From NCBI GenBank assembly GCA_027320085.1, contig DAHVLZ010000019.1, positions 87,912-151,911 on the forward strand: a stretch of DNA of 64,000 nt, written 5' to 3'. Below, piece by piece: positions 11,110 to 30,948 of this stretch (position 1 is the stretch's first letter; each line of letters begins with the position of its first letter). The position numbers were made by a program, and so were the translations under genes. The notes under the pieces are model-generated. The model was not told the origin of the DNA. It saw nothing but the letters and a program-made list of their open reading frames with translations, and did no database searches. The stretch is from Pseudomonadota bacterium (GTDB lineage: Bacteria > Pseudomonadota > Gammaproteobacteria > JAKAQQ01).

Positions 11110-13029
11110 ATGGCCACTCGACCCACGGCCCGACGCACCCCTGTCCGACTGCTTCTGGTCAATCCCCGCTTCCCGGAAAGTTTCTGGAGTTTCCGGTGGG
11201 CGTTGGAGCGGATCTTGCCGGGCAAGCGGGCGGTCAATCCGCCTCTGGGTTTGGCCACGGTAGCCGCCCTGTGCCCCCCTGACTGGTCGGTCCGGATTGT
11301 CGACGAAAACATCGAATCGATCCCGTTGGAGCCCGATGTGGATATCATCGGGGTTTGCGGGATGGGCGTCCAGTTCAAGCGGGAAAGCGAGATCCTGAAG
11401 TACTACCGGAGTCGCGGCTATTATGTCGTGGCGGGTGGCAGTTATGCGTCCCTCTGTCCGGAATCCTTCGGGGAGCTGGCACACACCGTCATTTCGGGCG
11501 AGGCTGAATATGTCTGGGGACGGTTTTGCGAGGACTTCCAGGCGGGGCAACCCCAGTCGCTGTACCGGGAAACCGGAACCGTGGACCTCGCCGATTCACC
11601 GCCCCCCCGTTTTGACCTGCTGAAACTTGAACAGTACACGACTGTCAGCTTACAGTTTTCCCGCGGGTGTCCGTATCGGTGCGAGTTCTGCGACATCATT
11701 GTCATGTTCGGTCGCCGACCGCGCACCAAACGGCCGGAACAGATCGGAATGGAACTGGATCTCCTGCGGGAGCGAGACGTTCACAACGTCTTTTTTGTTG
11801 ATGACAACCTGATCGGTAACAAGAAGGCGGCGCGCGAGCTCTTGATCTACCTTGCCCAGTACCAGCGAAAACATGACTATGTCTTTCGTTTCGGCACCGA
11901 GGCCTCTCTCAATCTCGCCCTGGATGACGAGTTGATGGAACTGTTTCGCGCGGCCAACTTTAGCTGGGTTTTTCTGGGGATCGAGACCCCGGATCCGGAC
12001 AGCCTGCAGGAGGTCCAGAAGACCCAGAACCTGGCTCAGGACGTGCTGACGGCCGTGCGGAAGATTTATGACCACGGGCTTGATGTCTTTGCTGGATTTA
12101 TCGTGGGCTTCGACCATGATCGTGTGGAGACGTTCGACCGCCAGTACCGCTTTATCCTGGATTCCGGAATTCAGGCTTCGATGATCGGGTTGCTGACCGC
12201 GATGCCCAAGACTCCGCTCTACGAGCGGTTGACCCGGGAGGGTCGATTGGTGCCCACGCTCGAGCTGGCCGACAACACCAAGCCTGTGACGAACGTGGTT
12301 CCGCTGCACATGAGTGTGGCTGATCTGGTCCGGGAGTATCAGTCGCTCTACCAGCGACTGTTCTGCGATGCCAATATCGCCAAACGCATCCGCAACAAGT
12401 TCCGGTATCTGGCACACCGGGTTCCGCGTCACCAGGTTCCATCCGAGCGTAACGGAACGATTCTGCGCCGGCTGTTCTATTCCGGCCTGTTGCCGGGCGG
12501 GCCGGTTCGGGTCTACCGCTTCGTTTCGACGCTGGTGGTGACTCCGTGGCGGGCCTGGCCTCTGGTTGTCACGGACTGGATTCAGGGCCTTTCCATCCGT
12601 TCCTACATTCACCGGCATCTCGACCCTGACTTGGCGCAAGCACAACGCGTGGTGGAGACGACACGAAAACGGTTGAGCAGGTACCTGCACCCGCGGTCCT
12701 CAACCCCTTCCCTCCGGGTGGCCCTGTCCATGAATGGCACAATCCCCTGCCTGCAGCTGTGGTTGGAGGGGACGGTGGATCGGGCTTTTTTCCGGTATGC
12801 AGCACGTCGGCTCTGCGGCATGCTGAACCAGAGTGCGGCGGCGCTTTTCCTGCATGTGGCGGATCTGCGCGAGGATCAACACCGGTTGTTTGACCGGTTT
12901 CTGGACCGTTTGTCTCCCTATGGAGACCGGGTCTCGATTTTCATCAACCAGAAGATCCGGACGCAGATGATGGTCGACTCGTCTGTTTTCCATCTCCTGC
13001 TCGAAGATCCGACCGCCAGCGCATCGTGA
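11110..13029 (+). CDS. B12-binding-domain radical SAM enzyme with a C-terminal extension (DUF4070-like), function unknown.
   Basis: An N-terminal cobalamin-binding-like region (LLLVNPRF..., GGSYAS) is followed by the radical-SAM cysteine triad CPYRCEFCD. Length is 639 aa. Confidence 0.8.
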   Translation: MATRPTARRTPVRLLLVNPRFPESFWSFRWALERILPGKRAVNPPLGLATVAALCPPDWSVRIVDENIESIPLEPDVDIIGVCGMGVQFKRESEILKYYRSRGYYVVAGGSYASLCPESFGELAHTVISGEAEYVWGRFCEDFQAGQPQSLYRETGTVDLADSPPPRFDLLKLEQYTTVSLQFSRGCPYRCEFCDIIVMFGRRPRTKRPEQIGMELDLLRERDVHNVFFVDDNLIGNKKAARELLIYLAQYQRKHDYVFRFGTEASLNLALDDELMELFRAANFSWVFLGIETPDPDSLQEVQKTQNLAQDVLTAVRKIYDHGLDVFAGFIVGFDHDRVETFDRQYRFILDSGIQASMIGLLTAMPKTPLYERLTREGRLVPTLELADNTKPVTNVVPLHMSVADLVREYQSLYQRLFCDANIAKRIRNKFRYLAHRVPRHQVPSERNGTILRRLFYSGLLPGGPVRVYRFVSTLVVTPWRAWPLVVTDWIQGLSIRSYIHRHLDPDLAQAQRVVETTRKRLSRYLHPRSSTPSLRVALSMNGTIPCLQLWLEGTVDRAFFRYAARRLCGMLNQSAAALFLHVADLREDQHRLFDRFLDRLSPYGDRVSIFINQKIRTQMMVDSSVFHLLLEDPTASAS

Positions 13030-13177: not shown

Positions 13178-13558
13178 ATGGATCAGTGCGCACGAGAATC
13201 AAAGCCGGATCTTTTGAATGACCGGAAGGCGACCTTCAGCTTGTGGGTTGTCCCTGTGCTCATCATTCTGATCGGCAGCAGCCTGCCCCGGCCTCTCCAT
13301 ACGGCACTCTGGGCACTCGGTTTTTCGGTCCTGGCGGCGGCCTGTGCGGTCAATGCCCGCCGTTGCGGTCGGCGACATTGTTTTTATACGGCACCGTTGT
13401 TCTTGGTTCTGGCTTTGGGTTCCCTGCTCTTCGGAATGGGCCTGCTCCCTCTGGGTCCTCACGGTTGGGGTGACCTCGTGGGGGTGGCCGTAGGCGGCTG
13501 GCTTTTGTCATGTTGCGTCATCGAACCCTGGAAGGGCCGTTACCTCCGGACCAAGTGA
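13178..13558 (+). CDS. Small integral membrane protein, hypothetical.
   Basis: ORF 13058..13558 trimmed to MDQCARE..., which is preceded by a GGAGGAGG ribosome-binding site. It has 3-4 hydrophobic helices. Confidence 0.45.
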   Translation: MDQCARESKPDLLNDRKATFSLWVVPVLIILIGSSLPRPLHTALWALGFSVLAAACAVNARRCGRRHCFYTAPLFLVLALGSLLFGMGLLPLGPHGWGDLVGVAVGGWLLSCCVIEPWKGRYLRTK

Positions 13559-13589
13559 TCCTGGTCCCTGAACCGGGTTCTCGCCTCAG

Positions 13590-13694
13590 TCACTCAACGG
13601 CTCAGAGGATCTGCGGTTCCGGTTTGAGGTCGAGCCCGAAATTTGAACGGACGGATTCTTGGATCCGTTGGGCGAGTGACCAGATCTGGGCGCC
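13590..13694. repeat. A 105-bp perfect direct repeat (copy 1), identical to the murB 3' end plus 12 nt of downstream flank.
   Basis: Positions 13590-13694 match 14891-14995 exactly (tcactcaacggctcagaggatctgcggttccggtttgagg...cagatctgggcgcc). Confidence 0.9.
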
Positions 13695-13744
13695 CGGGGT
13701 CGAACCATAAATTGATGAGAACCAGGTTCAGGATTGGGAGATCC

Positions 13745-13975
13745 CGGATCCCCGGGATCTGGCTTGGGTTCCCGGATTCGGCGAGCCGAGCGGCACGAGC
13801 CGGCACGCGAAAGGTGTGATGACGGTCGAGTGGGGCATCCGGCCAGAGCGTGGGGTTCGAAGATCGGGACACTGTTGGGACGTTCTCTGGACAGCCTGAG
13901 CTGATTTCCGGTTCGGTCCGCCAGATGTAGAGCTGCAGTTGGGGGCGATTGGGGCGTCGAATCACTGAGCCTGCC
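13745..13975 (-). pseudogene. Diverged partial duplicate of the murB 5' region (about 60 codons) plus a diverged tRNA-Val 3'-half remnant. It is fused to repeat copy 1 and is nonfunctional.
   Basis: Positions 13790-13890 align at about 80% identity with 15830-15930 (cggcacgagccggcacgcgaaaggtgtgatgacggtcgag...). Positions 13939-13975 (ttgggggcgattggggcgtcgaatcactgagcctgcc) resemble the tRNA-Val 3' half. ORF 13594..14100 translates as a MurB N-terminus (SRSSNPTLWPDAPLDRHHTFRVPARAA...) and then loses homology. Confidence 0.6.
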
Positions 13976-14162
13976 ATGCGGGAGGCAGGAAACACCAAAA
14001 GTACCCCAAGTTTTATAGGGACCTGAGCTGCACGAAAGGGCCCGGTCAGCGACCCGCTTGCACCGGATTTGTACCGGTCATCACCAGCCAGATGTCTCAA
14101 GGGACATGGTCAGGGACATGGTCAGGATTGATGTTTCGTAATCATTCGATTACAATGCAGCG

Positions 14163-14462
14163 ATGACCTACTCGGTGAAGCTGCTCGGTGAGTTTTCTGA
14201 CTGGCTTGCAGGCTTGAAGGACGGACTGACAAGACAACGCCTCGTCAAGCGTCTTCGTAAAGCGCAACTGGGCAACCTTGGCGATGTGGAGCCGGTAGGA
14301 GGAGGTGTATTTGAAATGCGCGAGCATTTTGGACCTGGATGGCGTATGTATTATGTTCAGCGCAGTAGAACGCTGATTGTCATGCTGGCAGGTGGCGACA
14401 AGACTACGCAACAGTCGGACATTGAGCGGGCCATTGCGTTTGCAAAGTCGCTGGAGGATTGA
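14163..14462 (+). CDS. Type II toxin, RelE/ParE superfamily (HigB-like addiction-module killer protein).
   Basis: It is 99 aa. The C-terminal LIVMLAGGDKTTQQSDIERA and the GNLGDVEPVGGGVFEMR motif are typical of the killer-protein family. A 4-nt overlap with the downstream antitoxin suggests translational coupling. Confidence 0.8.
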   Translation: MTYSVKLLGEFSDWLAGLKDGLTRQRLVKRLRKAQLGNLGDVEPVGGGVFEMREHFGPGWRMYYVQRSRTLIVMLAGGDKTTQQSDIERAIAFAKSLED

Positions 14463-14779
14463 TCATGGTTCATAAAGTCAAAGTCTCTGAGCTTTCAGAA
14501 CTCGACGTATCTGAGTACCTGGATAGCGGGGAAGATATCGCCGCCTATTTGACCGCTGTTCTGGAAGAAAACGATCCGGCGCTGCTAGCTGCAGCCTTGG
14601 GCGACATTGCCCGCGCCCGAGGAATGACTCAGGTGGCCAAGGACGCTGGCATCACTCGCGAAGCCTTGTATAAGGCACTTCGACAAAACAGCGAACCGAG
14701 ATTTGAAACGATCCAACGGGTTTGTACCGCTTTGGGTGTGCAACTGGTAGCACAATCCATGCACTTGCGTCATGCTTGA
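14459..14779 (+). CDS. Type II antitoxin, HTH (XRE)-type addiction-module antidote protein (HigA-like).
   Basis: It is 106 aa. The helix-turn-helix segment reads MTQVAKDAGITREALYKAL. It is encoded after the toxin, which is the reversed higBA gene order. Confidence 0.8.
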   Translation: MIMVHKVKVSELSELDVSEYLDSGEDIAAYLTAVLEENDPALLAAALGDIARARGMTQVAKDAGITREALYKALRQNSEPRFETIQRVCTALGVQLVAQSMHLRHA

Positions 14780-14890
14780 TGCGCACAACAGGCGACCAAT
14801 CCACCCGCGTGAAATTTTATGCGAGGGGTGTCCGGATTCCGGAGGAACGCTGTGCCTCTGGTGCAAGGTTGATGCAGATTCTTGTGCCAT

Positions 14891-14995
14891 TCACTCAACG
14901 GCTCAGAGGATCTGCGGTTCCGGTTTGAGGTCGAGCCCGAAATTTGAACGGACGGATTCTTGGATCCGTTGGGCGAGTGACCAGATCTGGGCGCC
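14891..14995. repeat. A 105-bp perfect direct repeat (copy 2). It covers the last 93 nt of murB plus 12 nt of downstream flank.
   Basis: Identical to 13590-13694. Confidence 0.9.
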
Positions 14996-15931
14996 TGTTG
15001 CCGTGCCATGGTTGACGAGAACGAGAGCATGCTGGGGTGAGACGCCCGCATCCCCCTCCCGGAATCCCTTCCACCCCGCCCGTTCGATGAGCCAGGCTGC
15101 GCTCACCTTCTGGCCTGACGGACTCTCAAAGACGGGGAGGTCGGGAAAGCGATCACGGAGCGACTGGACGCGCTCCGGTGTCAGGATGGGGTTCTTGAAG
15201 AAACTTCCTGCATTCCCGATCTCGGCCGGGTCCGGCAGCTTGCGTCGCCGTAGCCGGATGATGGCCTCGGCGACAGTGCGGGCCGTGGGAGGATCGGCCT
15301 GCAGGGCGGCCAGTTCCTCCCGGAGGCCGGGATAGTCGATCCGGAGAGCGGTCTCGAGGCCCAGCCGGAGCTCGATGGCGGTGATGATCCACCGGTCGGG
15401 CTCCCTCTGGAAACGGCTCTGGCGATAGCCGAACCCGCAAGCTTCCCGGTCCAGTCGCCGCCCCTGCCCGGCATGGCAGTCAAAGACTTCGACCGCTTCC
15501 AACACGTCGGAGAGTTCTGAGCCATAGGCGCCGATGTTCTGGACTGGCGCTGCCCCGACGCTGCCCGGGATGAGCGCCAGATTCTCGAGTCCGCAGAGGT
15601 TCCGATCGAGCGTCCATGTGACCAGCTCATGCCAGCCGACCCCGGCTTCCGCCCGGACACCCACGGTTCCGGATTCGGTGGAAAGGACTTTCGTGCCCCG
15701 GTTCCTCAGGATCAGCACCAGCCCCGGGAAATCCCGGGTGAAGAGCACGTTGCTGCCGGAGCCCAGTACCAGTCTCGGCTGGTTCCGGATTTGCGGGAGG
15801 TCCAGGATCTCCGGAATTTGATCCGGGTTTTCGATTTCGGCGAGCCAGGCAGCACGAGCCGGCACGCGAAAGGTGTTATGACGGTCGAGCGGAGCATCCG
15901 GGCTGAGCGTGGGATTCGAGGATCGGGACAT
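14903..15931 (-). CDS. murB: UDP-N-acetylenolpyruvoylglucosamine reductase.
   Basis: ORF 14903..16084 trimmed to MSRSSNPTL.... The longer N-terminus reads through the tRNA remnant. MurB motifs are present: LVLGSGSNVLF, LENLALIPGSVGAAPVQNIGAYG, GNAGSFFKNP and AAWLIERAGWKG. Confidence 0.85.
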   Translation of the reverse strand: MSRSSNPTLSPDAPLDRHNTFRVPARAAWLAEIENPDQIPEILDLPQIRNQPRLVLGSGSNVLFTRDFPGLVLILRNRGTKVLSTESGTVGVRAEAGVGWHELVTWTLDRNLCGLENLALIPGSVGAAPVQNIGAYGSELSDVLEAVEVFDCHAGQGRRLDREACGFGYRQSRFQREPDRWIITAIELRLGLETALRIDYPGLREELAALQADPPTARTVAEAIIRLRRRKLPDPAEIGNAGSFFKNPILTPERVQSLRDRFPDLPVFESPSGQKVSAAWLIERAGWKGFREGDAGVSPQHALVLVNHGTATGAQIWSLAQRIQESVRSNFGLDLKPEPQIL

Positions 15932-15998
15932 ATTCCGGTCGTCCTCGTGGGCAGCCTGAGCCGACTTCAGGTCTGGTCCGCCCGACGATGGTGCGGTT

Positions 15999-16047
15999 TG
16001 GTGGGCGATAGTGGGATCGAACCACTGACCCCTGTCGTTGTGAAAGC
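15999..16047 (-). other. tRNA-Val 3'-half remnant (acceptor and T-arm down to the anticodon loop). This is the distal att site of the tRNA-Val island.
   Basis: tggtgggcgatagtgggatcgaaccactgacccctgtcgttgtgaaagc compares with the intact tRNA-Val at 26218-26266, tggtgggcgatgcaaggttcgaacttgcgacccctgccgtgtgaaagc. The T-stem changes are compensatory. Confidence 0.75.
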
Positions 16048-16414
16048 TCACTGGGGTCGGCGTCCAGTATGGGTTTTCAGCCAAATCAACGAGTTAGGAC
16101 AGCACAAAACCCACCTAGCAACACATTTTACACGTCGAATTGTACCCAAAGTGTACCCAAATGTCTTGGCGTCGTAGGGGCACCGGGCCGGACCCGGCGG
16201 CGAATTTTTCCGGGCCCTTGTCAGACACGCCGGGGCCGCCTGGACGGGGAGCAGGCCGAACAACGGCGCGTAGCGCCGGCGGTAAGGCCGTATCTCCTGC
16301 ACAGTAGGAGCTTCGTCGCCTCTCGGCGCCGAAGGTGTACCTCGTGCGGTTTATCAGCAGGAGCCATCTCCGCGAATTTTTCCCGTGGCCTAAGAGCACC
16401 TCAGTCCAATAACT

Positions 16415-16660
16415 GTGGTAACCAGTATGCCCAAAGCAACCCTCGACGCCAAGCAGCTGGCGGAAGTGCTACACCTGAACGCCCGCACCATCACCAATAA
16501 CGTCCTGACTCACCCGGAACGGCTACCGTCCTTCGTGCGTCTTCCCTCCGGGAAGACCATCTGGTTTGAGGAGGACGTCCAGGCCTGGCTGGAGGAGCGG
16601 CGTGTCCAGGTGTTACCGACGCAGCGACATCCAACCGACTTTAGCCGCAGGTGGTGGTAA
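16415..16660 (+). CDS. AlpA/Xis-family phage-type DNA-binding regulator or excisionase.
   Basis: It is 81 aa. The segment LAEVLHLNARTITNNVLTHPERLPSFVRLPSGKTIWFEEDVQAWLEERR fits the AlpA family. It lies inside the island near the distal att site. Confidence 0.65.
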   Translation: MVTSMPKATLDAKQLAEVLHLNARTITNNVLTHPERLPSFVRLPSGKTIWFEEDVQAWLEERRVQVLPTQRHPTDFSRRWW

Positions 16661-17009
16661 TGGGGTCGGCCCGGGAAGGCCAGGCATGCGGTAGGCCCGA
16701 CGTTGAGGCGTGGCTGGCAGCCTTGACTGTGCGCGCCACTGGCCGCAGGCAGCCCCGCAACCGAACCAGCCACCGCCGGCCCTGACCGGCGAGGCGGCAA
16801 TTTGGGATAAGTATAAATAGCGGCGAATTGGAGCGCACCCAGAGGGCGCTTCGTCGCTCGCTGTGCCGATGTGGCAGTTCTGGAGATTGAGCGGTTTGCC
16901 GATAAGTACTGATAACAGTAGACTCGGAGAGCGTGGATTCGCGCACATTGGGGTTAACTTACCTTGCCGAAACATCTATGACTTCAGCGTACTTTTTCGC
17001 TAGCTAAGG

Positions 17010-17692
17010 ATGCGGAGAATTCAGCGCGTGACGTCCAAGACTTCGACTACGCGCGGTACTGGCAGCCCAACAGTCCTTCCAGCTCTGTGTCATGGGAGTA
17101 ACTCCTTGAGCAGCCTTTTTGTGTTGTCTTGGGTGAAGCTGGCATCGGTAAGACCACCGAATTTCAGGACCGAACCAGTAGGCTTCAGGAGGAAGGCAAA
17201 GCGGCCTTCTTTGTACCCCTCGATATTGCCGAAAATGAAAAAGCCTCTTCGGTCGGCTTGCCAGGGGACTGTACCCTTTCAACATATGGCAGGCGGGAAC
17301 AGACGTCGGCTACTTTTTTTAGATGCAGTCGATGAAGCGCTCTGGCGAAAAATGCCGACCTCGAAGTGGCACTCGAAAATGTGGTCCACCAGATAGGCTC
17401 TGTCCCAGGTGCTCTTGCCCGTGCCCGATTCATAGTGTCGACCCGTATAGGTGACTGGTATACACGAGGCGTGCCAGACACTGTCGGACAATTTATCGGC
17501 CACACATCCAACGGCAACCAGGCAACTTCGGTCGCGCCGCTTGTGTATTCCTTGAACCCATTGTCTGCAGAGGATGCAAAAGCTCTGGCCAAGTTTTATG
17601 GCGCTATTGACGCGAACTTGTTTTGGCGAGAGGTAGAACGGGTCGTGTCGCAAAAGTGGTGGAAACAAAAGTGGCGTAGTCTCCGAGATTGA
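17010..17692 (+). pseudogene. 5' portion of a P-loop NTPase gene. It is frameshifted and interrupted by an IS256-family insertion.
   Basis: A Walker A motif (LGEAGIGKTTEF) and a Walker-B-like motif (LLFLDAVDEA) sit in different frames. GC content is lower here. The fragment ends at the IS junction. Confidence 0.5.
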
Positions 17693-17699
17693 AAACCAA

Positions 17700-18960
17700 C
17701 GCAATCACGGCGTGACAAGCGCCGAGGAGGCTACGCCATGCGGAACCCTGGCACGGGACCGACAGATTTGCTGGAGGGAAGCGAGTGGCTCGATCCGCTC
17801 GAGCAGCAGGTGCTGCTCCGGGGTGCGCCCGTTCCTGCCGGAGCTGATTGAGCAGGAAGTGACCGAGGCGCTGGGACGGCTTCGGCACGGGCGGGACAAG
17901 GGCGACGGGCACCGGTCCCGGACGGTGATGGGCTCGTTTGGCCGGGTGGAACTGTCGATGCCGCGGGCCCGGGTGCGTGGTGAGGAGGGTTGCAGCCGTG
18001 AGTTTCACAGTGCGTTGCTGCCGCGCGACCAGCGTCTGACGGGCTCGGCGAGTGCCCTGATGGCCGGAGCGTACCTGGCGGGGGCGAACACCCGGCGGGT
18101 GCGCTTGGCGCTGGGGAGACTCTTTGGTGGGGCGGTGGGCAAGGAGACCGTCCGTCGTGCCTGGCACCGGGTGCGGGAGGACTTCGAGACCTGGAACCAC
18201 CGCCGCCTCGAGGGCGAGCCGATCGTGCGGCTAGTCCTCGATGGCACCGGGGTGCATGTGCGCCTGGACGGGGCGAGCACGGCCTTGTCGATCCAAGTGG
18301 CCCTGGTGGGGGTACGGGCCGATGGGCCGAAAGTGCTGCTGGGCTTGCGGGCACTGGCCGGAGAGAACTAGGCAGCCTGGGCCGATCTGCTCGGGGACCT
18401 GGAGTCCCGAGGCCTGAAGACCCCCGAGCTGGTGATCATCGATGGCGGCAAGGGGTGGGAAGCGGCGTTGGCCGCCTGGTGGCCCCGGGTACCGGTACAA
18501 CGCTGTACGGTCCACAAACTCCGAAACCTCATGGCCCATGCCCCGAAAAAGCTGCATGAGGAGATCAGCGCCGACTACCACGCCATGATCTATGCCGAGT
18601 CGGCCTCCCAGGTGCTCGCCCGGCGGCAGGCCTTCCTGCGCCAGTGGCGCCTGCGTTGTCCCGGAGTGGCCCGCAGTCTCGAGGAAGCCGGCGAGCGGCT
18701 GTTCACCTTCCTCCGCTATCCTCCCACCCAGTGGAAGCCGATCTGCACAACCCATGCCATCGAACGACTCCACCTGGAGTTCAAGCGGAGCATCCAGACG
18801 CAGTGCATGCTGCCCTGTGCCGACACCGCCTACATGATGTTCTGGGCCTTGCTCGCCAGCGGTCAGATCACGCTGCGCAAGGTGACCGGCTGGCAGATGC
18901 TTCTTGCCCCCCCACCCGCTTGACCTCGCCGCATGACCCGTGCAAGACTTAACCCGTCTG
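17700..18960. mobile_element. IS256-family insertion sequence with a degenerate transposase. Boundaries are approximate.
   Basis: Transposase homology covers 17712..18923. Imperfect terminal inverted repeats are suggested by ggcgtgacaagcgccgaggagg at 17709-17730 and a related reverse-complement sequence near 18925-18950. Confidence 0.65.
17712..18923 (+). pseudogene. IS256-family (mutator-type) transposase. It has an in-frame TAG stop at 18369-18371 and probably an N-terminal frameshift.
   Basis: Two ORFs (17712..18371 and 18432..18923) lie in the same frame, separated only by TAG. The translation EN*AAWADLLGDLESRGLKTPELVIIDGGKG shows conserved IS256 transposase blocks: RVELSMPRAR, VRLVLDGTGVHVR, CTVHKLRNL and LRYPPTQWKPICTTHAIERLH. 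Confidence 0.8.
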
Positions 18961-19015
18961 GAGACCATCCGTCAATTTCTACCAACTTCCGGACACAACC
19001 CCCACCACATCGGCA

Positions 19016-19902
19016 ATGGCGCCCATAATCGAAAGCGTGTACGCATTCTTTCACAGAAACATTTCTCGTGAACACGACATTCGCCACAAGAGCGGCGAGG
19101 CCTATTCACCCGGCGAACGGGACATCGCACAATCCGTGCGCGACAACTTGGCTGTACACCTCGCGCGCATACCAGGTAATGCGCCTCACGAGAGCCTTCG
19201 TCGACTGGCAGTCAGTGCTAAAGACCGGCCAGAAGAAGTGGGCCTCCAGGCCCTTCTGCGCAACCACGCCTCCGAGGGAGCGGCACGGCTGGTGCTTCGT
19301 GAGCCCAAGGACATCCCGCGCTTAGGGGACGTGTATTGCCGGGAACTACGGTCTGAGGCCGAGTTGTTTGAAGTCGTTCTTGCGCGCCTAGAAGCCATAA
19401 AAGACAGTGTCGAGTCCGGCCGGTTCAGTGAGAGGGTGTTATTCGAGCGCGGTATGGAAGAAAAAAGCTGCAGACGTGGCTCGCGGCGCGGCTTGAGGAG
19501 GCATGCGGCCGGCACGCGTTTGGGGTTACGCGGGAGTTTGAGGGTGACGAAGGCAAGAGGCCGGATATTCACATCCATCATGCAAAGGGAGCGGTCTGTT
19601 TGGAAATCAAGCCCCTGGATAAAATGCGCTATACGCATAAGAAGCTGCGAAAGGCGTTGGAAAGACAGCTTGTCGACCAATACATGGGTAGGCGCAATAG
19701 TCGTCATGGTATTCTCATGCTTTTTCTATTAGAGAGTCGAACGTGGCAACTTCCAAGAAATGGGCGAGCGGATTTCAACGAGCTCCTGGTCTTTATACAG
19801 GAATGCGGAAATATGCTCGCCAAAAACAGGCCGGATGTCGAGATTCTTAAGGTCTTCGGTATTGATTGTACCGAGCGTCACGTGCCGGTAGTAGTGTGTT
19901 AA
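19016..19902 (+). pseudogene. 3' portion of the same disrupted P-loop NTPase gene, with at least one internal frameshift.
   Basis: ORFs 19016..19732 and 19600..19902 overlap in different frames. They lie downstream of the IS, with low GC content. Confidence 0.4.
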
Positions 19903-20023
19903 GAGAACAAATCTGTGAAGGCGGACACAGGGTCACAGGGTTTAGGTTTGTGGCACCAAGAATACCCCCGTGTCTAGCGACAAACTAAGAACGAAACAAC
20001 GAGAAAAACGAGAGGAGGACCAC

Positions 20024-21205
20024 ATGAAGCTGTATATTACGTCGCCGGCGAAGGCAGACGCAGGGGTAATAGGTGTCTATCGGAGGGCGTTTCGGGAGGC
20101 TACGGAGCTCTATCTTGTTTCCGCTTATCTCACAGCGTGGACGGATATCCCGAAATTAAACAGAGCGTGCAAAAGCTTCACCATGATTATAGGCAAGGAT
20201 TTCGGTATTACGCGCAAGGCAGCATGTAATTCAGTTGTGGATTGGTTACCGAAGAGATTTCTGTCGAATTTCATGGTAGCGGATGGAATGGCGGGGTTCC
20301 ACCCGAAGGCGCTTTTCTGGAAAGACAGTTGCAATGGGAACCACATGCTTGTAGGGTCGTCGAACATGACAGAAGCGGCAATGTCAGGGAATGTAGAAGC
20401 TAACGTGTACCAGCTCATTACACGGAAAGAGTTTGATAGAGCGCGCCTATGGGTTGGAGGCCTGGCGCAACATTCAGTACCGGTGGCGGGGGGCTGGCTC
20501 GCCAGGTACAGGGAGGCATCAAAATGGCCTTCTGGCGGCGGAGGTAGGCGAAAGCAGATGGTGGGGGAAAAGGAAGGCGTCTCCGTTATGCCGTTGACCT
20601 TGCCAGACCCAACGGCTGGTAAAGAAATGATTGGGGGCCGAAAATCGCAGATAAAAGAGTTCGAACATAACAGAAGGAAGTTTCTACATATGCTCCGCCG
20701 GCGCGTTGCAGGAAAGACACGTAATGTTGATGTATACAATAGTATGTTAAATCTATGGGGCATTATGGCATTTCAATCGCAGCAATGGACAAGGAGTGGG
20801 CGGCGGAGCAACTGGAAAGCGTTTGCGCGGGCCTTTCTGGAGGTTTGCGATGCCAGAGATGAAGAGCGGGATGAAGTCGTGCGGGCTCAAAAGGACTTGT
20901 TAAAGAAAAAGAAGGTACCGACGCGCGGGTCTGTGTTTGCGGAATTGCTGTGCCACTATTTTCCAGATTTGTATCCTGTGTTAAACGAGCCTGTCGGAGA
21001 ATGGGCGAAGCGGGTAGGATACAGGGCGCCTCGTGGAGCATCGGAAGGAAATCGGTATCTTCTTCTTGCAAAAACACTCCGTGCCGCGCTTGCGCAAAAG
21101 CCCAGAAACTATCCCGCTAAAAATCTCGCGGAGCTGGACATTTATATTTGGGCTTACATAAAAAACGAGCGGGATAAAAAGAAAAGAAGACGCAAGAGTA
21201 AATAG
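20024..21205 (+). CDS. Phospholipase-D-family nuclease with a single HKD motif (Nuc/BfiI/NgoFVII-like fold) and a Lys/Arg-rich C-terminal tail.
   Basis: ORF 19970..21205 trimmed to MKLYITSP..., preceded by an AGGAGG ribosome-binding site. The HKD signature reads FHPKALFWKDSCNGNHMLVGSSNMT (HxK(x)4D(x)6GSxN). The gene ends 52 nt upstream of hsdM. Confidence 0.75.
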   Translation: MKLYITSPAKADAGVIGVYRRAFREATELYLVSAYLTAWTDIPKLNRACKSFTMIIGKDFGITRKAACNSVVDWLPKRFLSNFMVADGMAGFHPKALFWKDSCNGNHMLVGSSNMTEAAMSGNVEANVYQLITRKEFDRARLWVGGLAQHSVPVAGGWLARYREASKWPSGGGGRRKQMVGEKEGVSVMPLTLPDPTAGKEMIGGRKSQIKEFEHNRRKFLHMLRRRVAGKTRNVDVYNSMLNLWGIMAFQSQQWTRSGRRSNWKAFARAFLEVCDARDEERDEVVRAQKDLLKKKKVPTRGSVFAELLCHYFPDLYPVLNEPVGEWAKRVGYRAPRGASEGNRYLLLAKTLRAALAQKPRNYPAKNLAELDIYIWAYIKNERDKKKRRRKSK

Positions 21206-21257
21206 GGAGTGCAGTGTATATGAGGATTGCGGGGGGCTCTAAGTTGGATGGCGGCAT

Positions 21258-23062
21258 ATGAATTTCTCTGAACTCGCCAACTTCATCTGGTCTGTGGCAG
21301 ACCTCCTGCGCGGTGACTACAAGCGCGCCGACTACGGCAAGGTCATTCTCCCCTTCACCCTTCTGCGGCGTCTCGAGTGCGTCCTTGAGCCCACCAAGGC
21401 GAAGGTACTGAAAGAATACGAGAAGCGTAAGAGCGAGGCGGCGCTCGAGGTGCGTCTCGCGCGCGCAAGCGGTCAGATCTTCTGCAACACAAGCCCCTTT
21501 ACGCTGTCCGCGCTCTTGGATGACCAGAAACACATCCGGCAGAACCTCACCGCCTACTTGGGCGACTTCTCGGCCGAGGCCCGCTATGTCTTTGAGAACT
21601 TCAGGTTCTTGAACCGCGTAGGGGAACTCGAGGAGAAGAACCTCCTCTTTCTCATTGTCCAGAAGTTCGCCGCCATCGACCTGCACCCCGACGGGGTGCC
21701 GAACGAGATGATGGGCCAGGCCTTCGAGGACCTCATCCGGCGGTTCGCCGAGGACTCCAATGAGACGGCCGGTGAGTACTTCACGCCCCGGGACGTCATC
21801 CGCCTCATGGTCCAATGCCTGTTCGCTGAAGACAGCGACAGTCTCTCCCGCCCAGGTGTCATCCGCTCCCTCTACGACCCGGCGGCGGGCACGGGTGGGA
21901 TGCTCTCCATGGGGCAACTGGCCCTCCACGAGATGAACGACAAGGCCAAACTCGCCCTCTTTGGCCAGGAGCTGAACGAAGAGTCCTACGCCATCTGCAA
22001 GGCGGACATGCTCATCAAGGGCCAGGACCCGAACAACATCCGCCCGGGCAATACGCTCTCGGCGGACGCCTTCCCCGACGAGCGATTCGACTACGGGCTC
22101 TCCAATCCCCTGTTTGGAGTCGACTGGAAGAAGGTCCAGGAGGCGGTGAAGACCGAATACGAGAAGAAGGGCTACGGGGGCCGCTTCGGGCCGGGACTGC
22201 CGCGCATCTCGGACGGGGCGCTCCTCTTCCTCCTGCATCTCATCTCCAAGATGCGGCCAGTATCTGATGGCGGGGGCCGCATCGGCATCGTGTTGAGCGG
22301 CTCGCCCCTCTTTACGGGGGATGCCAGCTCCGGCGAGTCCGAAATCCGCCGCTGGATTCAGGAAAACGACTGGCTTGAGGCCATCATTGCGCTGCCCACC
22401 GACCTCTTCTACAACACGGGCATTGCCACCTACATCTGGATACTGGATAACGACAAGCGCAAGGACCGCAAGGGTAAGGTCCAGCTGATTGACGCCACCC
22501 GGATGTACGCCAAGATGAAAAAGAGCCTAGGGAGCAAGCGGGCCACCATCACGGACACCCAGATTGCCGAAATCGTGAAGGTCTACGGGGACGGTCAGGA
22601 AGGGGGCCACCTTCTCAAGCGAATACCAGGACAGCAAGACGAACGGCAACGGCACCCCCCGAACCCGAGGCCCCGCGGGTGGTCTCCAGGGTCTTCGACA
22701 ACGCCTTCTTTGGCTACCGCAAGGTCACCGTGGATAGGCCGCCCCGCCCCGGCACTGAGGGCAAGCCCAAGAAGGGCGAAAAGCCCTACGATAAAGAGCT
22801 GCGGGATACCGAGACCACCCCCCTTACCGAATCCATCGACGACTACATGGCGCGAGAGGTGTTACCCCATGTGCCGGATGCTTGGGTGAACACCACCATC
22901 CGGGATGAGAAGGACGGTCAGGTCGGCAAGGTCGGTTATGAAATCAACTTCAACCGCTATTTCTACGTGTACAAGCCACCCCGGCCGCCCGAAGTCATTG
23001 CGGCGGAGATTCGGGAGATGGAGAAACGCTTCCTTGAGCTCATGAAGGGGATGGTGGGGTGA
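21258..23062 (+). pseudogene. hsdM: Type I restriction-modification N6-adenine DNA methyltransferase subunit HsdM. It is interrupted by a -1 frameshift in a C6 homopolymer near 22655-22660.
   Basis: The N-terminal part (21258..22889) carries DPAAGTGGML (motif I) and SNPLFG (motif IV). The conserved C-terminal part (...PEPEAPRVVSRVFDNAFFGYRKVTVDRP...EINFNRYFYVYKPPR) lies in the -1 frame (ORF 22679..23062). Adding one C to the C6 run joins the two frames. Confidence 0.8.
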
Positions 23063-23595
23063 AAGTGTTGGCCGAGGTTCTAAATCCCGATGTGCGCCAA
23101 GCGGCTCTTGTCACGTTAGACATTGGCGGATGGCGCCCTATAGGGATTCGCGACTACCATACGCAATTGGAGGCTCTCCGAGTTACAGATGTTGTCCCGG
23201 AAGCCGTTCGGGAGCAGTTTGATGTTGCTCGCAATTTGATGTTGTATGGCTGGTTTGTGTACGAATTCTATACAGTTGCAAGCAATCATGCGCTGGCATG
23301 CTTGGAATACGGCTTGCGAGAAGCCTGTCAAATCGTAAATGGCGGCATGAACCCGTGCGCGAAAAAACCCGGACTCAGGTGTTACCTCAAGAAAGCGACG
23401 AAACTCGGATTGATTCCCGCGGGTAAGTACCATGACAAACTGGACTTTCTCCTTTCGAGTGTTCGCAATAGCATAGCCCACGGCGGCCGCACACTGCTCA
23501 ACTACGCAATGGCGATGGCAACTTTGGAGGTAGTGGCCGACTTATTAAATGACGTATTCAGTTCGGAAAGGGTCTCGTCATGTCGGCCAATATAA
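23059..23595 (+). CDS. Hypothetical protein encoded between hsdM and hsdS, possibly DUF4145-like and R-M-associated.
   Basis: It is 178 aa and overlaps hsdM by 4 nt at the GTGA stop/start. The motif VRNSIAHGGRTL resembles the R-x-IGN-AAH motif of the convergent protein at 24405..25064. There is no recognisable catalytic motif. Confidence 0.5.
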   Translation: MKVLAEVLNPDVRQAALVTLDIGGWRPIGIRDYHTQLEALRVTDVVPEAVREQFDVARNLMLYGWFVYEFYTVASNHALACLEYGLREACQIVNGGMNPCAKKPGLRCYLKKATKLGLIPAGKYHDKLDFLLSSVRNSIAHGGRTLLNYAMAMATLEVVADLLNDVFSSERVSSCRPI

Positions 23596-24227
23596 GACAT
23601 GTTGGTGTATCTGGTTCGTCCGCGTGGACCAAGCTGAAGTACGTCGCAAGAATTGGAGGTGGGGCAGGATTTCCTCCTGAAGAACAGGGTCAAACTGGCA
23701 ACGAGCTCCCGTTCTGCAAAGTAAATGCGCTCGAGTCTTCCACAAGCGATGGCATACTCTCGGCGCCTTGGGACACGGTTTCGAGTGCAACTGCCGAGAA
23801 ACTAGGGGCCCATATTTTCAAGCCGGGTTCGACCGTTTTCGCCAAAGTGGGTGCCGCGCTGTTATTGAATCGCTTCCGGCAGATTAACTGTCGTGCTTGC
23901 TTAGATAACAACAAGATGGGCCTTGAACCAGACCAGAGCCGTGTCTCACCACGGTATCTTATGTACGCCCTGAGCACAAAGGACTTGTCCATCGTCGCTA
24001 ATCCCGGAGCCGTTCCGTCGGTGAATGCTTCCCAAATTGCGGAGGAGAAAATTGTCTGCCCACCCGTCCTAGAACAAACCCGCATCGCCAACTTTCTCGA
24101 CGAGCAGATGGCGCGGATTAATGCGCTGATTGCGGAGAAGGAGAGGTTGGTTGAGTCATTGCGGGAATACAGGCAGTCATGGCTCTCGGGGCTATTGAGG
24201 TCGCCACCTGGTGGCGACGTTGCATAG
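23580..24227 (+). CDS. hsdS: Type I R-M specificity subunit HsdS, half-size with a single target-recognition domain.
   Basis: It is 215 aa. The C-terminal conserved-repeat region reads IVCPPVLEQTRIANFLDEQMARINALIAEKERLVESLREYRQS. Only one target-recognition domain is present. Confidence 0.75.
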   Translation: MSANIRHVGVSGSSAWTKLKYVARIGGGAGFPPEEQGQTGNELPFCKVNALESSTSDGILSAPWDTVSSATAEKLGAHIFKPGSTVFAKVGAALLLNRFRQINCRACLDNNKMGLEPDQSRVSPRYLMYALSTKDLSIVANPGAVPSVNASQIAEEKIVCPPVLEQTRIANFLDEQMARINALIAEKERLVESLREYRQSWLSGLLRSPPGGDVA

Positions 24228-24404
24228 CTACGAGGCCTGATACGCAAACGCACGAGATTCTGACCCTTCTGCGCCGTGGGGAGGGGTTCATCAATGACCT
24301 AGACAGCGACTTACCGTCCGAGGTCGTGGTCATGCGCGATGCGCTGGGCCGGAACCTGTGTAGAGCCGCAGGCCTCCGGTGACGCTTAACCACCAGATGC
24401 GCCA

Positions 24405-25064
24405 TTATGGGATGGGCTTTCTATTAGCGGCTATAACTTTTTTGTTAAAATCGTCCTTACGCTTTTGAGCAGCGGCGGGCGCGACGAAGAGGAAGTCAAA
24501 CAGTCCGTCAAGTACGATCAGATTCCACTCCGCTTCACCTTCCGCGACGGGCATTATTTGCCCGGACGATGCGTCTTTTAATGGGTGCGCAGCAAAGTTT
24601 CCGATCTCACGAACGCAGTGGAGTTGAGCGCCCAATTGAGACGGCAACATCTTGCCGTTGATGGCCTTCTCAATCTCATCTGACAGATTGTTTCCCTTGA
24701 TACCAAGGTTGTTTTGAAGAATGTTTTGAAGGCATCGACGGCTCAGGGCGGCGCTCGCCTTTGGACTGTCCTGTAGCACTAAGGCCGCCTCGGAGTAGTC
24801 TTCTGCAAACTCCCGCGGAACATCGGGCGGTGGGGCTGGTCGCGCAGACGCTTTTGGGTAAGCAATGAACGATTCTTGATCTACAAAAGACATGCCTCCA
24901 TCGCTGTAGTGCTTTACCTGGTTAGCGTGCACGAGAGAAATTATGACTTTTTTGCATTCTGGACATGCCTGATAAGAAACTCCCCAGTTACTGTCTGCAT
25001 CTCGGAGAAGGTAGTGCAATTGCGGATGGTTAAAAAAAGCTGTGCGGCAATGCGGACACACCAT
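24405..25064 (-). CDS. Zinc-ribbon protein with a DUF4145-like C-terminal domain, commonly found near type I R-M loci. Function unknown.
   Basis: The N-terminus has CPHCRTAF...CPECKK. The C-terminus reads HCVREIGNFAAHPLKD...EAEWNLIVLDGLFDFLFV. Confidence 0.5.
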   Translation of the reverse strand: MVCPHCRTAFFNHPQLHYLLRDADSNWGVSYQACPECKKVIISLVHANQVKHYSDGGMSFVDQESFIAYPKASARPAPPPDVPREFAEDYSEAALVLQDSPKASAALSRRCLQNILQNNLGIKGNNLSDEIEKAINGKMLPSQLGAQLHCVREIGNFAAHPLKDASSGQIMPVAEGEAEWNLIVLDGLFDFLFVAPAAAQKRKDDFNKKVIAANRKPIP

Positions 25065-25079
25065 ATGGTTTCCTCCTAT

Positions 25080-26081
25080 CTAGCCTAGTAGTGCAGCTAG
25101 GTCTTCTGCCCTTAGGTGAGTATAGCGTTTCAACATCTGCAACGTCTTGTGTCCCGTGATGGCGGCCACCTGCATCGGGTTCAGACCCCGCTCAAAGAGT
25201 CGGGACGTGGCCTCGTGGCGCAGATCGTGGAACGCCAGGCTCTCGATCTTGGCCTCGGCACAGACGCGCTCAAAGGCTTGTGAGATCGAATCTGGCCGCA
25301 TGGCCCAGACCTCGCCGTCTATGCGCCGTGGGAGAGCATCTAAGACGGCCAGGGCGCGGGTAGAGAGCGGCACACGCCGGGGCGTTCCCGTCTTGGTTTC
25401 CGGGATCAAAAGCACCCGGGCTCGCTGGTCCACATGCTCCCACCGCATGGCGGCGATCTCGCCGCGGCGCATGGCGGTCTCTATGGCCCAAGTGATGATC
25501 GGGCCGATCTGCCCGCCGTAGGTGGTGGCTTCTTCCAAGAGCTGCTTTCCCTCGTCGCTGACCAAGCGACGGTCGCGGCCGGGTGGCAGCTTAGGGCGCT
25601 GGCTTTTCACAATGTCCACGGGGTTCGAGAGGGATTCCATGCCCCATGCCGTGCGGGCGGTATTGAACAAATGGGAGAGAAGGTTGAGCTCTTTGTGGAT
25701 TGTCGCCGGTGCGGCGTTTTCGCCGGCGCGTTCGCGCACGTATTTCGCCATGTCTTTCCCTCTGATGACGGCGAGCGGACGAGATGCGAGCGCGTGACGC
25801 TGCCAGCGCTCGATCCGAAAACGCTCGACCGCCGTGCCTCTCTTGCCAGGTGTTATCTCCTGCGCGTAGCACTCCAGAGCCTCGCGCAGGGTCGTGCTCT
25901 CGGCCTCCGCGCGGGAGACGAACACGCCGCGCCTCATCTCAGATTCGATGGTGGTCGCCCAGGTCTCCGCCTTGTCCTTGCTGTCAAACGTGGCGGTTTG
26001 CTGAGGGTAACCCCGCCGGCGAATGAGGACTTGCCATACCCGGCGGCCGCCAGGGCCTTTGCGCGAAACGTAGGTCGCCAT
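25080..26081 (-). CDS. int: Tyrosine-type site-specific integrase (phage integrase family).
   Basis: ORF 25080..26171 trimmed to MATYVSRKGPGGRRVWQ. A C-terminal catalytic region (AFHDLRHEATSRLFERGLNPMQVAAITGHKTLQMLKRYTHL) is present. It lies directly downstream of tRNA-Val. Confidence 0.85.
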   Translation of the reverse strand: MATYVSRKGPGGRRVWQVLIRRRGYPQQTATFDSKDKAETWATTIESEMRRGVFVSRAEAESTTLREALECYAQEITPGKRGTAVERFRIERWQRHALASRPLAVIRGKDMAKYVRERAGENAAPATIHKELNLLSHLFNTARTAWGMESLSNPVDIVKSQRPKLPPGRDRRLVSDEGKQLLEEATTYGGQIGPIITWAIETAMRRGEIAAMRWEHVDQRARVLLIPETKTGTPRRVPLSTRALAVLDALPRRIDGEVWAMRPDSISQAFERVCAEAKIESLAFHDLRHEATSRLFERGLNPMQVAAITGHKTLQMLKRYTHLRAEDLAALLG

Positions 26082-26217
26082 AACACCCCCCTTATAACAC
26101 CTTGATAACACCCATTCGCCGGAACGCGGCCGGATGATTTGCGACAACGGATTGTCGCAGGATTGTCGCAAAAGGAAGGGTTGGCTGGCTAGTTGGCTTG
26201 CTAAGTGCTTGATTTTA

Positions 26218-26293
26218 TGGTGGGCGATGCAAGGTTCGAACTTGCGACCCCTGCCGTGTGAAAGCAGTGCTCTACCGCTGAGCTAATCGCCCC
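26218..26293 (-). tRNA. tRNA-Val (anticodon CAC), intact. This is the proximal att site of the island.
   Basis: The reverse complement GGGCGATTAGCTCAGCGGTAGAGCACTGCTTTCACACGGCAGGGGTCGCAAGTTCGAACCTTGCATCGCCCACCA folds as a 76-nt cloverleaf, with CAC at positions 34-36. Confidence 0.85.
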
Positions 26294-29392: not shown

Positions 29393-30316
29393 TTAGCGCC
29401 AGGTCCCGCCATTCGGGTCCCATCGGCCTTTGGCGCCTTCCGGCAGCGCAAGGTTTGCGATAACAGGGCCGAAGAAGCGCCGCAGCTCCGCTTGCAGGTC
29501 GATGAAGGACAGCGGTTGAAGGGTCGGTGGATTTCGGCGCAGGAAGCCACTCCAAAGGCCGCGCTCCTCAGCAATCTTCGCAAACCTTTCCGTAAGACCC
29601 ACCGGCATTTCGCTCGGGATCGCAATCTCGCGGCGCCGAAGCGTTCCTGAGACGGCTTCAGCCAGGCTAGGTAGGTCGAACGGGAACGTGCGGGTCGTGA
29701 CCCAAATATCATGAAAATCCTTGATCCTTCCGTTCGCCTCCCCGAAGCGGATCATCGCTTCGAACTTCTCAGCCACCACGGCTTCAGGCGGGTACATCAG
29801 GATATTCGCCGCGGATAGATCTGGCAGGAGGGCTGGGAAGGTCTGCCGCGTCGGTGGAGGGTAGACATAGTCGCCAAAACCGACGTCCACATGCACGGGA
29901 ATGATTGCCTTGGCCAGTTCGCCCGTCAGGTTCAGCTGGGCGCCTTGGTACTTGTCGGCTTCGCGCACCGGCTCGACTCGCAGGCTTGCCGGGTCGAAGA
30001 CAATGCCGTCGTCGGGGGCTTGGACCTGGCAGATGCGGGTAAAGAGTTCGGTGATGGCGGCAGGGTCAGAGTCGCCCTGGCCGAGCAAGTCGAGGTCACC
30101 GGTGGGCCGGAAGGCGTGCTCGGGCCAGGTGACGAACAGCATGGCGCCCTTGAGCACATAGTGCTCGGCAGCCTCCGTCTGACTGAGCCGATAGAGCAGG
30201 CGTTCGATAGCGTAGCGCGTCAAGACTCGCTGGTAGTCATCGCGATGCTCCTTGGCATGCTGGAGCAGCCGCGCCCTGATGGATGCCGCGGGATTCTTTA
30301 GAGTCTTGCCATTCAT
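29393..30316 (-). CDS. AbiEii/AbiGii-family nucleotidyltransferase toxin (type IV toxin-antitoxin system).
   Basis: ORF 29393..30472 trimmed to MNGKTLKNPAASIRARLLQHAKEHRDDYQRVLTRYAIERLLYRL.... A nucleotidyltransferase GDLD motif is present (HYVLKGAMLF...TGDLDLLG). It shares an ATGA stop/start overlap with the upstream gene. Confidence 0.75.
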   Translation of the reverse strand: MNGKTLKNPAASIRARLLQHAKEHRDDYQRVLTRYAIERLLYRLSQTEAAEHYVLKGAMLFVTWPEHAFRPTGDLDLLGQGDSDPAAITELFTRICQVQAPDDGIVFDPASLRVEPVREADKYQGAQLNLTGELAKAIIPVHVDVGFGDYVYPPPTRQTFPALLPDLSAANILMYPPEAVVAEKFEAMIRFGEANGRIKDFHDIWVTTRTFPFDLPSLAEAVSGTLRRREIAIPSEMPVGLTERFAKIAEERGLWSGFLRRNPPTLQPLSFIDLQAELRRFFGPVIANLALPEGAKGRWDPNGGTWR

Positions 30317-30948
30317 TGCACCGCTTTGATATAGGGCGCGATCCGTTCGGTGACGCGATCGATGGCTGCGTACTTCATCAGCTCGCTCGGGGTAGTCTTT
30401 CTTTTGCGCAAGGCGTCCCGCAGCGCTTCGATGGCGACGTCCTCGCCAATATGGCGGCGATGCTTGAAGCAATCCGCTACGGTTTTTGCGACACCGTAGA
30501 TCGGCACGTCGACCCCCTCTATGCGGATGTGCTCGATGCCCGCAGTCAGGACCGCACCAGTGGCGCGAACAATCTCGAGCCGCGGATTCCGCACGTTCGG
30601 CGTCCTGGCTCCGTGAGGAATGGTCATCCAGACCGCGTGCGGCAGCTGAGTAGTCAGTTCGTGGTACCGAAGCGCACTGACGAGGCTGATCACGCCGTTC
30701 GGGGCGAGACGGGCGGCTTCAGCCAGGTCATGAGCAACGTCCTCGCCCACGCGTTCCGGGTCTTGGTAGAGGCCGCGGCCAAGCTGGACAAGGTCGCCGG
30801 CGTCGGTCAGGCGCTTCAGGTAGACCAGAGGGATGCCCGCCGCTTTGAAATCGCGTGCGCGCGCAATTCCCCTGTCATGGATGAGGCGGAGCGCGCGTTC
30901 GCGATAAGTTATATGACGTTCAGCCATTGTGTTATCTATTGTAGTCAA
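30313..30948 (-). CDS. AbiEi-family antitoxin and transcriptional regulator (type IV toxin-antitoxin system).
   Basis: It is 211 aa, immediately upstream of AbiEii and translationally coupled to it. An N-terminal winged-helix-like region is followed by a conserved C-terminal domain. Confidence 0.65.
   Translation of the reverse strand: MTTIDNTMAERHITYRERALRLIHDRGIARARDFKAAGIPLVYLKRLTDAGDLVQLGRGLYQDPERVGEDVAHDLAEAARLAPNGVISLVSALRYHELTTQLPHAVWMTIPHGARTPNVRNPRLEIVRATGAVLTAGIEHIRIEGVDVPIYGVAKTVADCFKHRRHIGEDVAIEALRDALRKRKTTPSELMKYAAIDRVTERIAPYIKAVQ

Follow-up and report, generated by a model that had tools for sequence, protein, structure and literature searches.

The DNA analysed here (hereafter the window) is a stretch of 64,000 nucleotides from a bacterium of the Pseudomonadota (GTDB lineage Gammaproteobacteria, JAKAQQ01; NCBI GenBank assembly GCA_027320085.1, contig DAHVLZ010000019.1, positions 87,912 to 151,911 of the forward strand), and the element of interest is a toxin-antitoxin (TA) cassette that is located at the 3' end of the murB gene between two direct repeats (positions 13590-14995 of the window). 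The repeats, at 13590-13694 and 14891-14995, are spaced 1301 bp apart and are identical over exactly 105 bp; a further base at either end would already break the match, and the window contains only these two copies. The right copy belongs to the functional murB (14903..15931 on the minus strand, 342 aa, with the Pfam domains FAD_binding_4 and MurB_C), whose genuine 3' end it comprises, namely, the last 30 codons with the stop codon, along with 12 bp beyond, and the left copy resembles it in full as a host-type murB 3' end (30 codons and stop, with 12 bp downstream). An earlier note on this DNA had described the two copies as identical and one of them as the true end of murB, and for the window both statements hold. 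Between the repeats lie, in this order, a diverged and internally deleted copy of murB together with its upstream spacer and one half of a tRNA-Val gene (hereafter the relic), a unique non-coding segment that we denote the arm (13990..14124, GC content 0.556), a toxin gene and an antitoxin gene preceded by a promoter-like site, and another unique non-coding segment, the tail (14780..14890), which ends at the junction 14890/14891. On the left, the cassette is flanked by a gene for a predicted 126-aa membrane protein that has no match in Pfam or NCBIfam (13178..13558, plus strand, called in sibling contigs as well); this gene shows 85% nucleotide identity to sister species B and is convergent with murB in the sister species.

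The cassette is an insertion, because the site is empty in the two nearest sister species and the window remains colinear with both once the 1301 bp are taken out. MurB orthologues that are 87%, 82% and 70% identical to the window protein were found in three sister species through a protein search and contig look-ups; the best relative from a scan of GTDB genomes with MurB is 59% identical and is too distant for an empty-site comparison. In the two closest species (87% and 82%; contigs L092-95 of sister species B and L096-99 of sister species C), murB directly abuts an open reading frame (ORF) of 126-146 aa, and the gene order is GluRS, Lactamase_B, tRNA-Val, murB, the 126-146-aa ORF and a radical SAM gene, with no TA genes. 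The proposal that the cassette had been inserted is borne out by this comparison. Within the species of the window, all sampled contigs that span the site contain the cassette, with the 1301-bp spacing unchanged; these are MEGAHIT k141 contigs from four ENA samples and the NCBI metagenome-assembled genome (MAG) GCA_021828425.1 (Logan contigs are too short to span it), and no empty site was found among same-species contigs that carry the exact 126-aa flank protein.

Both copies of the repeat are host-type, because the 105 bp are 86.7% identical to the sequence of species B, which matches the rest of murB (88%) and is unlike the relic DNA (~75% to B); if the repeat were donor-type DNA at the 75% level, the observed identity to B would have a probability of P = 0.003. 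By the same token, at the ~22% divergence of the neighboring relic, two or fewer mismatches in 105 bp would be expected with P = 2e-9. The perfect identity of the repeats, as originally reported, stands for the window but is peculiar to this strain or to its assembly. The left copy reads A at both 13621 and 13650 in four other assemblies of the species, as opposed to G in the right copy and in the window, and the species-level state of the repeat is 103/105 (~2% divergence). The same-species contigs otherwise differ by about 1 base per 5 kb, the only other single-base differences over 5 kb being those at 13840 (contig L006) and at 12606 (contig L005), that is, the population is nearly clonal and the paired change in the left repeat stands out. 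Against such a low background, the two changes, which are 29 bp apart and are both directed toward the murB sequence, mark either copy correction in the window strain or smoothing of the assembly consensus. At 13621, species B and C have the codon GTG, which corresponds to CTG in the left copy of the other strains and to CCG in the functional murB; this series weakly suggests that the left copy of the other strains keeps the older state (a chance match has a probability of ~0.13). In one of the samples, ERZ27237373, the left repeat is where the k141 assembly breaks, notwithstanding a k larger than the repeat (contig L187 ends at window position 13661, and L003 and L008 start at 13651), which might be due to low coverage or to mixed variants at this site.

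The diverged stretch that follows the left repeat had been described as a tRNA-Val remnant and a murB 5' end with about 80% identity to the native sequence. The level of similarity was estimated correctly (BLAST aligns 13725-13978 with 15781-16031 at 77% identity, E ~1e-47; the ungapped blocks show 80% over 152 nt and 82% over 38 nt, with 89% in the core, 13777-13871), and the stretch contains more than these two parts, being an entire murB pseudogene with an internal deletion and a frameshift, in register with the left repeat. The 3' fragment of this pseudogene (13695..13725, minus strand) encodes LVLIN, equivalent to the native ALVLVN, and contains a 1-nt insertion that shifts the frame; by hand alignment, it is ~64% identical to native 14996-15025 and ~75% identical to species C, and BLAST extends through it. 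At the deletion junction (13725..13726), native positions 15026-15780 (755 bp) are cleanly missing, with the BLAST segments 13587-13725 (aligned to 14888-15025) and 13725-13978 (aligned to 15781-16031) abutting each other. The 5' coding fragment (13726..13872, minus strand), delineated by alignment and translation and 80% identical to the native sequence without gaps, has the start codon ATG changed to GTG at 13870-13872 and carries the replacements N19H, W29R, I33S and E34G (including the EIEN motif) in residues that are conserved in all four related species. Next come a diverged copy of the spacer between tRNA-Val and murB, identified by alignment to the native one (13873..13938, minus strand), and a decayed 3' half of tRNA-Val that extends from the anticodon stem to the CCA end (13939..13989, minus strand). 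The T-stem pairing is lost in this tRNA half, ~26% of its positions are changed, though the same tRNA is identical in the window species, B and C, and neither ARAGORN nor Rfam calls it. The ORF 13594..14100, whose 3' part is not in the murB frame, lacks a Pfam match, is not called by gene callers in sibling contigs and is a chimeric artefact, as had been suspected.

The relic is much older than the repeats. It is 75% identical to the native sequence, 75% to species B, 73% to C and 65% to D; it shares only two of the eight native-specific substitutions, and in the quartet analysis the count is 8:2:1 in favor of native with B and relic with C, which places the relic outside the native and B pair. 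These numbers agree with the earlier note in that the tRNA-Val/murB piece does not derive from recent copying of the resident sequence. Among 157 columns that are invariant in four species, 26 are changed in the relic, tRNA positions included, which corresponds to a Jukes-Cantor (JC) distance of ~0.19. For comparison, the divergence at four-fold sites of murB is 0.25 between the native gene and that of B (0.126 per lineage) and 0.50 between the native gene and that of C. Judging from these comparisons, the relic, decayed by ~17-25%, branches near or before the split from species B, and given that its JC distance of ~0.19 is set against 0.126 per lineage for native and B, it has drifted unconstrained for about as long as, or longer than, the separation from B. 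The repeat is roughly ten times younger than the relic. The history of the locus has two phases, namely, an old relic and, subsequently, either recent joining or recent homogenisation.

The tRNA-Val site next to murB is a working integrase target, because a 10.2-kb island is present there in the window and is absent in sibling strains. This tyrosine-integrase island (~10.2 kb, 16048..26217), which is an element separate from the cassette, encodes an HTH_17 protein (16427-16660), an IS256-family transposase split in two ORFs (17712-18371 and 18432-18923), HsdM (21258-22889), a fragment of HsdS (23580-24227), a DUF4145 protein (24405-25064) and, adjoining tRNA-Val, a tyrosine integrase (25080-26171; PF00589). 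The functional tRNA-Val(CAC) gene (26218..26292, minus strand) has a 3' half with a compensated T-arm that is supplied by the island, and the displaced host 3' half (15998..16047, minus strand), which is the 3' half of the intact tRNA-Val in island-free siblings, represents the right attachment site (attR) of the island. Three same-species contigs (L001-L003, 99.9% identical) lack the island and pass from 16047 straight to 26218, with a 48-bp overlap and an intact tRNA-Val. Given that the integrase adjoins the tRNA, that the tRNA 3' half is present at both ends (15998-16047 and 26218-26265) and that some strains lack the element, 16048-26265 is a tRNA-targeting integrative island, and the native tRNA-Val remnant of the earlier description is the attR of this strain-specific element. 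At 16035 and 16039, adjacent to the crossover core TGTGAAAGC, the attR carries a single substitution and a single extra T relative to the island-free tRNA, and these differences may represent heterology from the island attP or later mutations.

The tRNA homology of the relic stops at the anticodon stem, at most 3 nt from the end point of the attR of the 10.2-kb island. Because of this coincidence, the relic tRNA half looks like an attR-type scar, and the relic, the arm and the TA module together resemble the fossil attR junction of an earlier tRNA-Val island. Two more direct connections with islands were considered and rejected. The arm shows no similarity to the end of the 10-kb island, and the cassette does not qualify as an autonomous tRNA-targeting island given that 13590-14995 encodes no recombinase and retains just one tRNA half, which is decayed. 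Neither for the arm nor for the tail was a homologue found in the rest of the window or in the fetched loci. Immediately before the TA promoter, at 14101-14124, there is an exact tandem repeat, GGGACATGGTCA x2, which is not part of the region conserved among TA loci.

The TA genes are intact. The toxin (99 aa, 14163..14462, plus strand) is a member of the RelE/ParE superfamily of the HI1419/Gp49 type that scores 117.4 bits against TIGR02683 (cut-off 62.85), covering profile positions 3-94 of 95, and 28.7 bits against PF05973. The antitoxin (104 aa, 14465..14779, plus strand) is of the HI1420 type, with a C-terminal XRE-like helix-turn-helix (HTH) domain, and scores 123.3 bits against TIGR02684 (cut-off 53.7), 119 bits against PF21716 (dnstrm_HI1420) and 30 bits against HTH_3 (cut-off 23). 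Both proteins are full length against the family profiles, and the toxin gene is located upstream of the antitoxin gene in the same orientation, with a 2-nt gap. On the strength of the profile matches, we assign the pair to the HI1419/HI1420 family of type II TA (TIGR02683 + TIGR02684). The description of the pair as higBA-like is apt with regard to the RelE/ParE toxin, the HTH antitoxin and the HigBA-like gene order but does not extend to the toxin family, because the toxin lies outside the HigB family model: HigBA sensu stricto was rejected given that the sole Pfam match at E up to 0.01 is Gp49 (PF05973), with no HigB model, and that NCBIfam specifies only a RelE/ParE family toxin. Neither protein has a match in PDB by sequence. 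From what is known of the family, we take the toxin to be, probably, a ribosome-dependent mRNA interferase that is restrained by the HTH antitoxin, which also mediates auto-repression. A promoter-like site (TTGATG, 17-nt spacer, TACAAT; 14128..14156, plus strand) overlaps the palindrome GTAATC-attc-GATTAC at 14138-14153, the presumed operator of the antitoxin.

The GC content at third codon positions of the TA genes is 0.51-0.55, compared to 0.66-0.76 for the neighboring host genes. Homologues of the TA genes were identified in 930 plasmid records and also in viral or prophage-like contigs; a scan of JGI metagenomes with the toxin retrieved 80 loci (best match 87%), a scan of IMG/VR retrieved 13 loci, and the antitoxin search returned thousands of matches, with ~80% identity for the best non-self one. 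Overall, the closest relatives of the pair show only ~80-87% identity at the protein level and ~73% at the DNA level. Because the nucleotide similarity to ~90 related TA loci is always confined to 14125-14767 (with the onset at 14124-14138), the mobile unit consists of just the promoter, the toxin and the antitoxin. An integron gene cassette was also considered as a candidate and discarded: the tail region 14777-14895 folds no better than shuffled sequences (z = -0.87, -0.37), and neither an attC-like fold nor IntI was found.

Apart from the cassette, an AbiEii-type toxin is encoded at 29393-30472 (minus strand), beyond GluRS and a tRNA-Ala/tRNA-Glu pair; it is paired with AbiEi in a sibling contig (L001, 5224-6758) and in a contig of sister species C (L096, 395-1917), and therefore the neighborhood carries several addiction or defense modules. 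Sister species B contains an IS200/IS605 element (TnpA and a TnpB/Cas12f-like protein) between the radical SAM and RRM genes (11874-13608 in L092; 9335-11069 in L093), which is missing in the window species.

How the old relic came to lie between two young copies of the murB end can be addressed through the two junctions. The left one, 13694/13695, passes in register from the repeat into the pseudogene, in accord with the earlier proposal that one junction was guided by homology. The block that ends at this junction, 13675-13694, is identical at all 20 positions in species C and at 19 of the 20 in species B, which makes it a natural pairing point for a diverged partner. At the right junction, 14890/14891, the unrelated tail meets the base 12 bp past the murB stop, without useful microhomology. 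The history that we favor, with roughly even confidence, is an import in which one junction was guided by homology and the other was illegitimate, with the resident 105 bp being duplicated. Under this scenario, the 1301-bp insert would be a non-autonomous relic in two parts, the intact, self-promoted TA module (~14125-14779) and a fossil island junction, the latter made up of a tRNA 3' half truncated at the anticodon stem, followed by the spacer and by the murB copy that has since been gutted. The fossil part would have evolved for a long time without constraint, most likely as passenger DNA that had been picked up from a related host via imprecise excision, and would then have been joined to the resident murB 3' end of the window species. 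The junction 13694/13695 would have been guided by homology at the 20-nt block and the junction 14890/14891 would be illegitimate, such that the resident 105 bp was left on both sides and the essential murB remained whole. Such an event would be akin to homology-facilitated illegitimate recombination (HFIR), or to interchromatid integration with a small duplication, rather than to a simple Campbell crossover. Subsequently, the cassette might have become fixed in the species, with the two copies drifting to 103/105, and the left copy of the window strain might have been converted to the murB sequence later.

Several points weigh against the import. The age estimates rest on ~260 aligned positions. 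A search for a donor of the relic, arm or tail produced no match in the JGI metagenomes, IMG/VR or the protein collection; in a BLAST comparison of these three segments with all 202 fetched loci and the window, only the TA module (14125-14767) matched, and an exact 38-nt pattern from the relic had no match in IMG/VR. The illegitimate junction shows almost no microhomology, and the reported HFIR events mostly delete recipient DNA rather than duplicate it. The scenario also assumes that a murB/tRNA fragment of no use persisted for a long time on a mobile element. Finally, the TA homologues are not generally found by tRNA genes (a tRNA is present within 3 kb in only 1 of 53 loci), and accordingly the notion that TA modules of this kind are usual tRNA-adjacent cargo was rejected.

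The strongest competitor of the import, which we consider possible but clearly less probable, places the entire history in situ. Here a TA-bearing island would have integrated at tRNA-Val in an ancestor, an illegitimate tandem duplication would have encompassed the region from murB to the tail, and the integrase would have excised the island from the second copy, restoring tRNA-Val; the left murB would then have decayed and lost 755 bp, with its last 105 bp homogenised late. The order of flank, murB pseudogene, tRNA half and TA-bearing island end is what a tRNA-Val island would leave, with the left flank being the natural neighbor of murB, and the site is demonstrably an active integrase target, as the 10.2-kb island attests. 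Copy correction within the 105 bp does occur, as in the window strain, and the decay of the relic (~0.19) fits, within the error, an origin shortly after the split from B (0.126 per lineage). This account, however, requires an extra and awkward event, a conversion tract that ends exactly at 13590 and sharply at 13694, beside 31 bp of ~64% identity. Only two of the eight native-specific substitutions are shared with the relic, an origin before the split from B would call for precise loss in B, and no intermediate form was seen. The in situ account thus agrees with the gene order very readily but less well than the import with the phylogenetic signal.

Returning to the import, we entertain, tentatively and with slightly less confidence than the in situ history, the idea that the 105-bp duplication is a rescue scar. 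Foreign DNA would have been drawn into the murB 3' end by a short conserved block, with survival of only the recombinant in which the resident end was duplicated, by an interchromatid or replicative route; the TA module would now penalise loss via the repeats. If the 105-bp repeats recombined, the TA genes would be lost and the ancestral site recreated, and post-segregational killing could select against such loss. If true, this would be a natural, small-scale counterpart of the experiments in which a lethal cassette produces a merodiploid, and decayed host flanks on mobile debris would act as homing arms in related species.

The mechanism that had been proposed originally, namely, a single reciprocal crossover in the murB 3' region with a circle that carried tRNA-Val/murB DNA of ~75-80% identity, so that the repeats are the duplicated homology, does not hold in its literal Campbell form, to which we assign a low probability. 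The direct repeats that flank the insert are the classic signature of such an integration, and the in-register junction at 13694/13695 fits it as well. This crossover, however, would leave one donor-type repeat, with the diverged 3' end of the element expected at 14891-14995, whereas the copy found there is host-type and 98-100% identical to the left one. Because the donor 105 bp is not found on the murB side, the mechanism needs amendment; to rescue it as proposed would require mismatch correction of the entire 105 bp or an element that already carried the host-type 105 bp.

Many integrative elements use the 3' end of a housekeeping gene as the insertion site and leave the gene restored, with a direct repeat; islands that target trmE and dusA are reportedly examples. 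A direct repeat at the regenerated 3' end of murB resembles this arrangement, such that the cassette might be the stump of an element site-specific for the murB 3' end, with the repeats as its left and right attachment sites (attL and attR). We regard this as quite improbable: there is no recombinase between the repeats, the internal murB 5' end and tRNA half are left unexplained, and none of the 92 related TA loci share the flanks. An assembly artefact (a collapsed or chimeric repeat) is the least credible explanation, because, notwithstanding the restriction of perfect identity to the window and the short contigs that break inside the repeat, the same architecture with the same 1301-bp spacing was recovered in four ENA assemblies and the NCBI MAG, the longer independent contigs run across both copies and the short Logan contigs are consistent with it.

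The locus is a resolved natural case of a selfish TA module that outlived its carrier island. Under the favored history, it also illustrates that captured host-flank DNA can steer later recombination and that a short duplication kept an essential gene intact, and it provides a dated contrast at a single site, with an old relic, a young repeat and one repeat copy corrected in a single strain. It can be used as an example for annotation pipelines, given the chimeric ORF and the tRNA scars that are not genes, and in studies of island decay.

No component of the locus is new: a stranded addiction module accompanied by island and host-flank debris is ordinary biology, and each part has a counterpart among known systems. 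The TA pair resembles other HI1419/HI1420 pairs in the toxin-first order, the 2-nt gap, the promoter-like site over a palindrome and the membership in a family that is common on plasmids and prophage-like contigs, and it differs in that its nearest relatives are at the distance given above. The relic junction is similar to a relic attR of tRNA-targeting tyrosine-integrase islands, in which TA-bearing island DNA comes after a tRNA 3' half truncated at the anticodon stem, and a live example is present at the same tRNA-Val 2 kb away; unlike such sites, the relic has no integrase or partner att site, is displaced beyond murB and carries a gutted murB. In specialised transduction of the lambda dgal type, imprecise excision captures the host flank, which is followed by homology-driven insertion. 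The resemblance is that host DNA by the att site travels with the element and later pairs with the host gene, yielding a partial duplication; in contrast, the cassette has no phage or island backbone, and both repeat copies are of the recipient type. For the joining step itself, one-sided homology with an illegitimate second end is documented for HFIR (PMC3240628), and in interchromatid integration, duplication leaves an essential gene with an intact copy (PMC3784515). With these the cassette would share one homology-guided and one illegitimate junction and an essential gene kept intact by duplication; the known cases there come from other organisms, and the reported transformation-induced merodiploids span 100-900 kb (PMC3784515), compared to a duplication of only 105 bp at murB.

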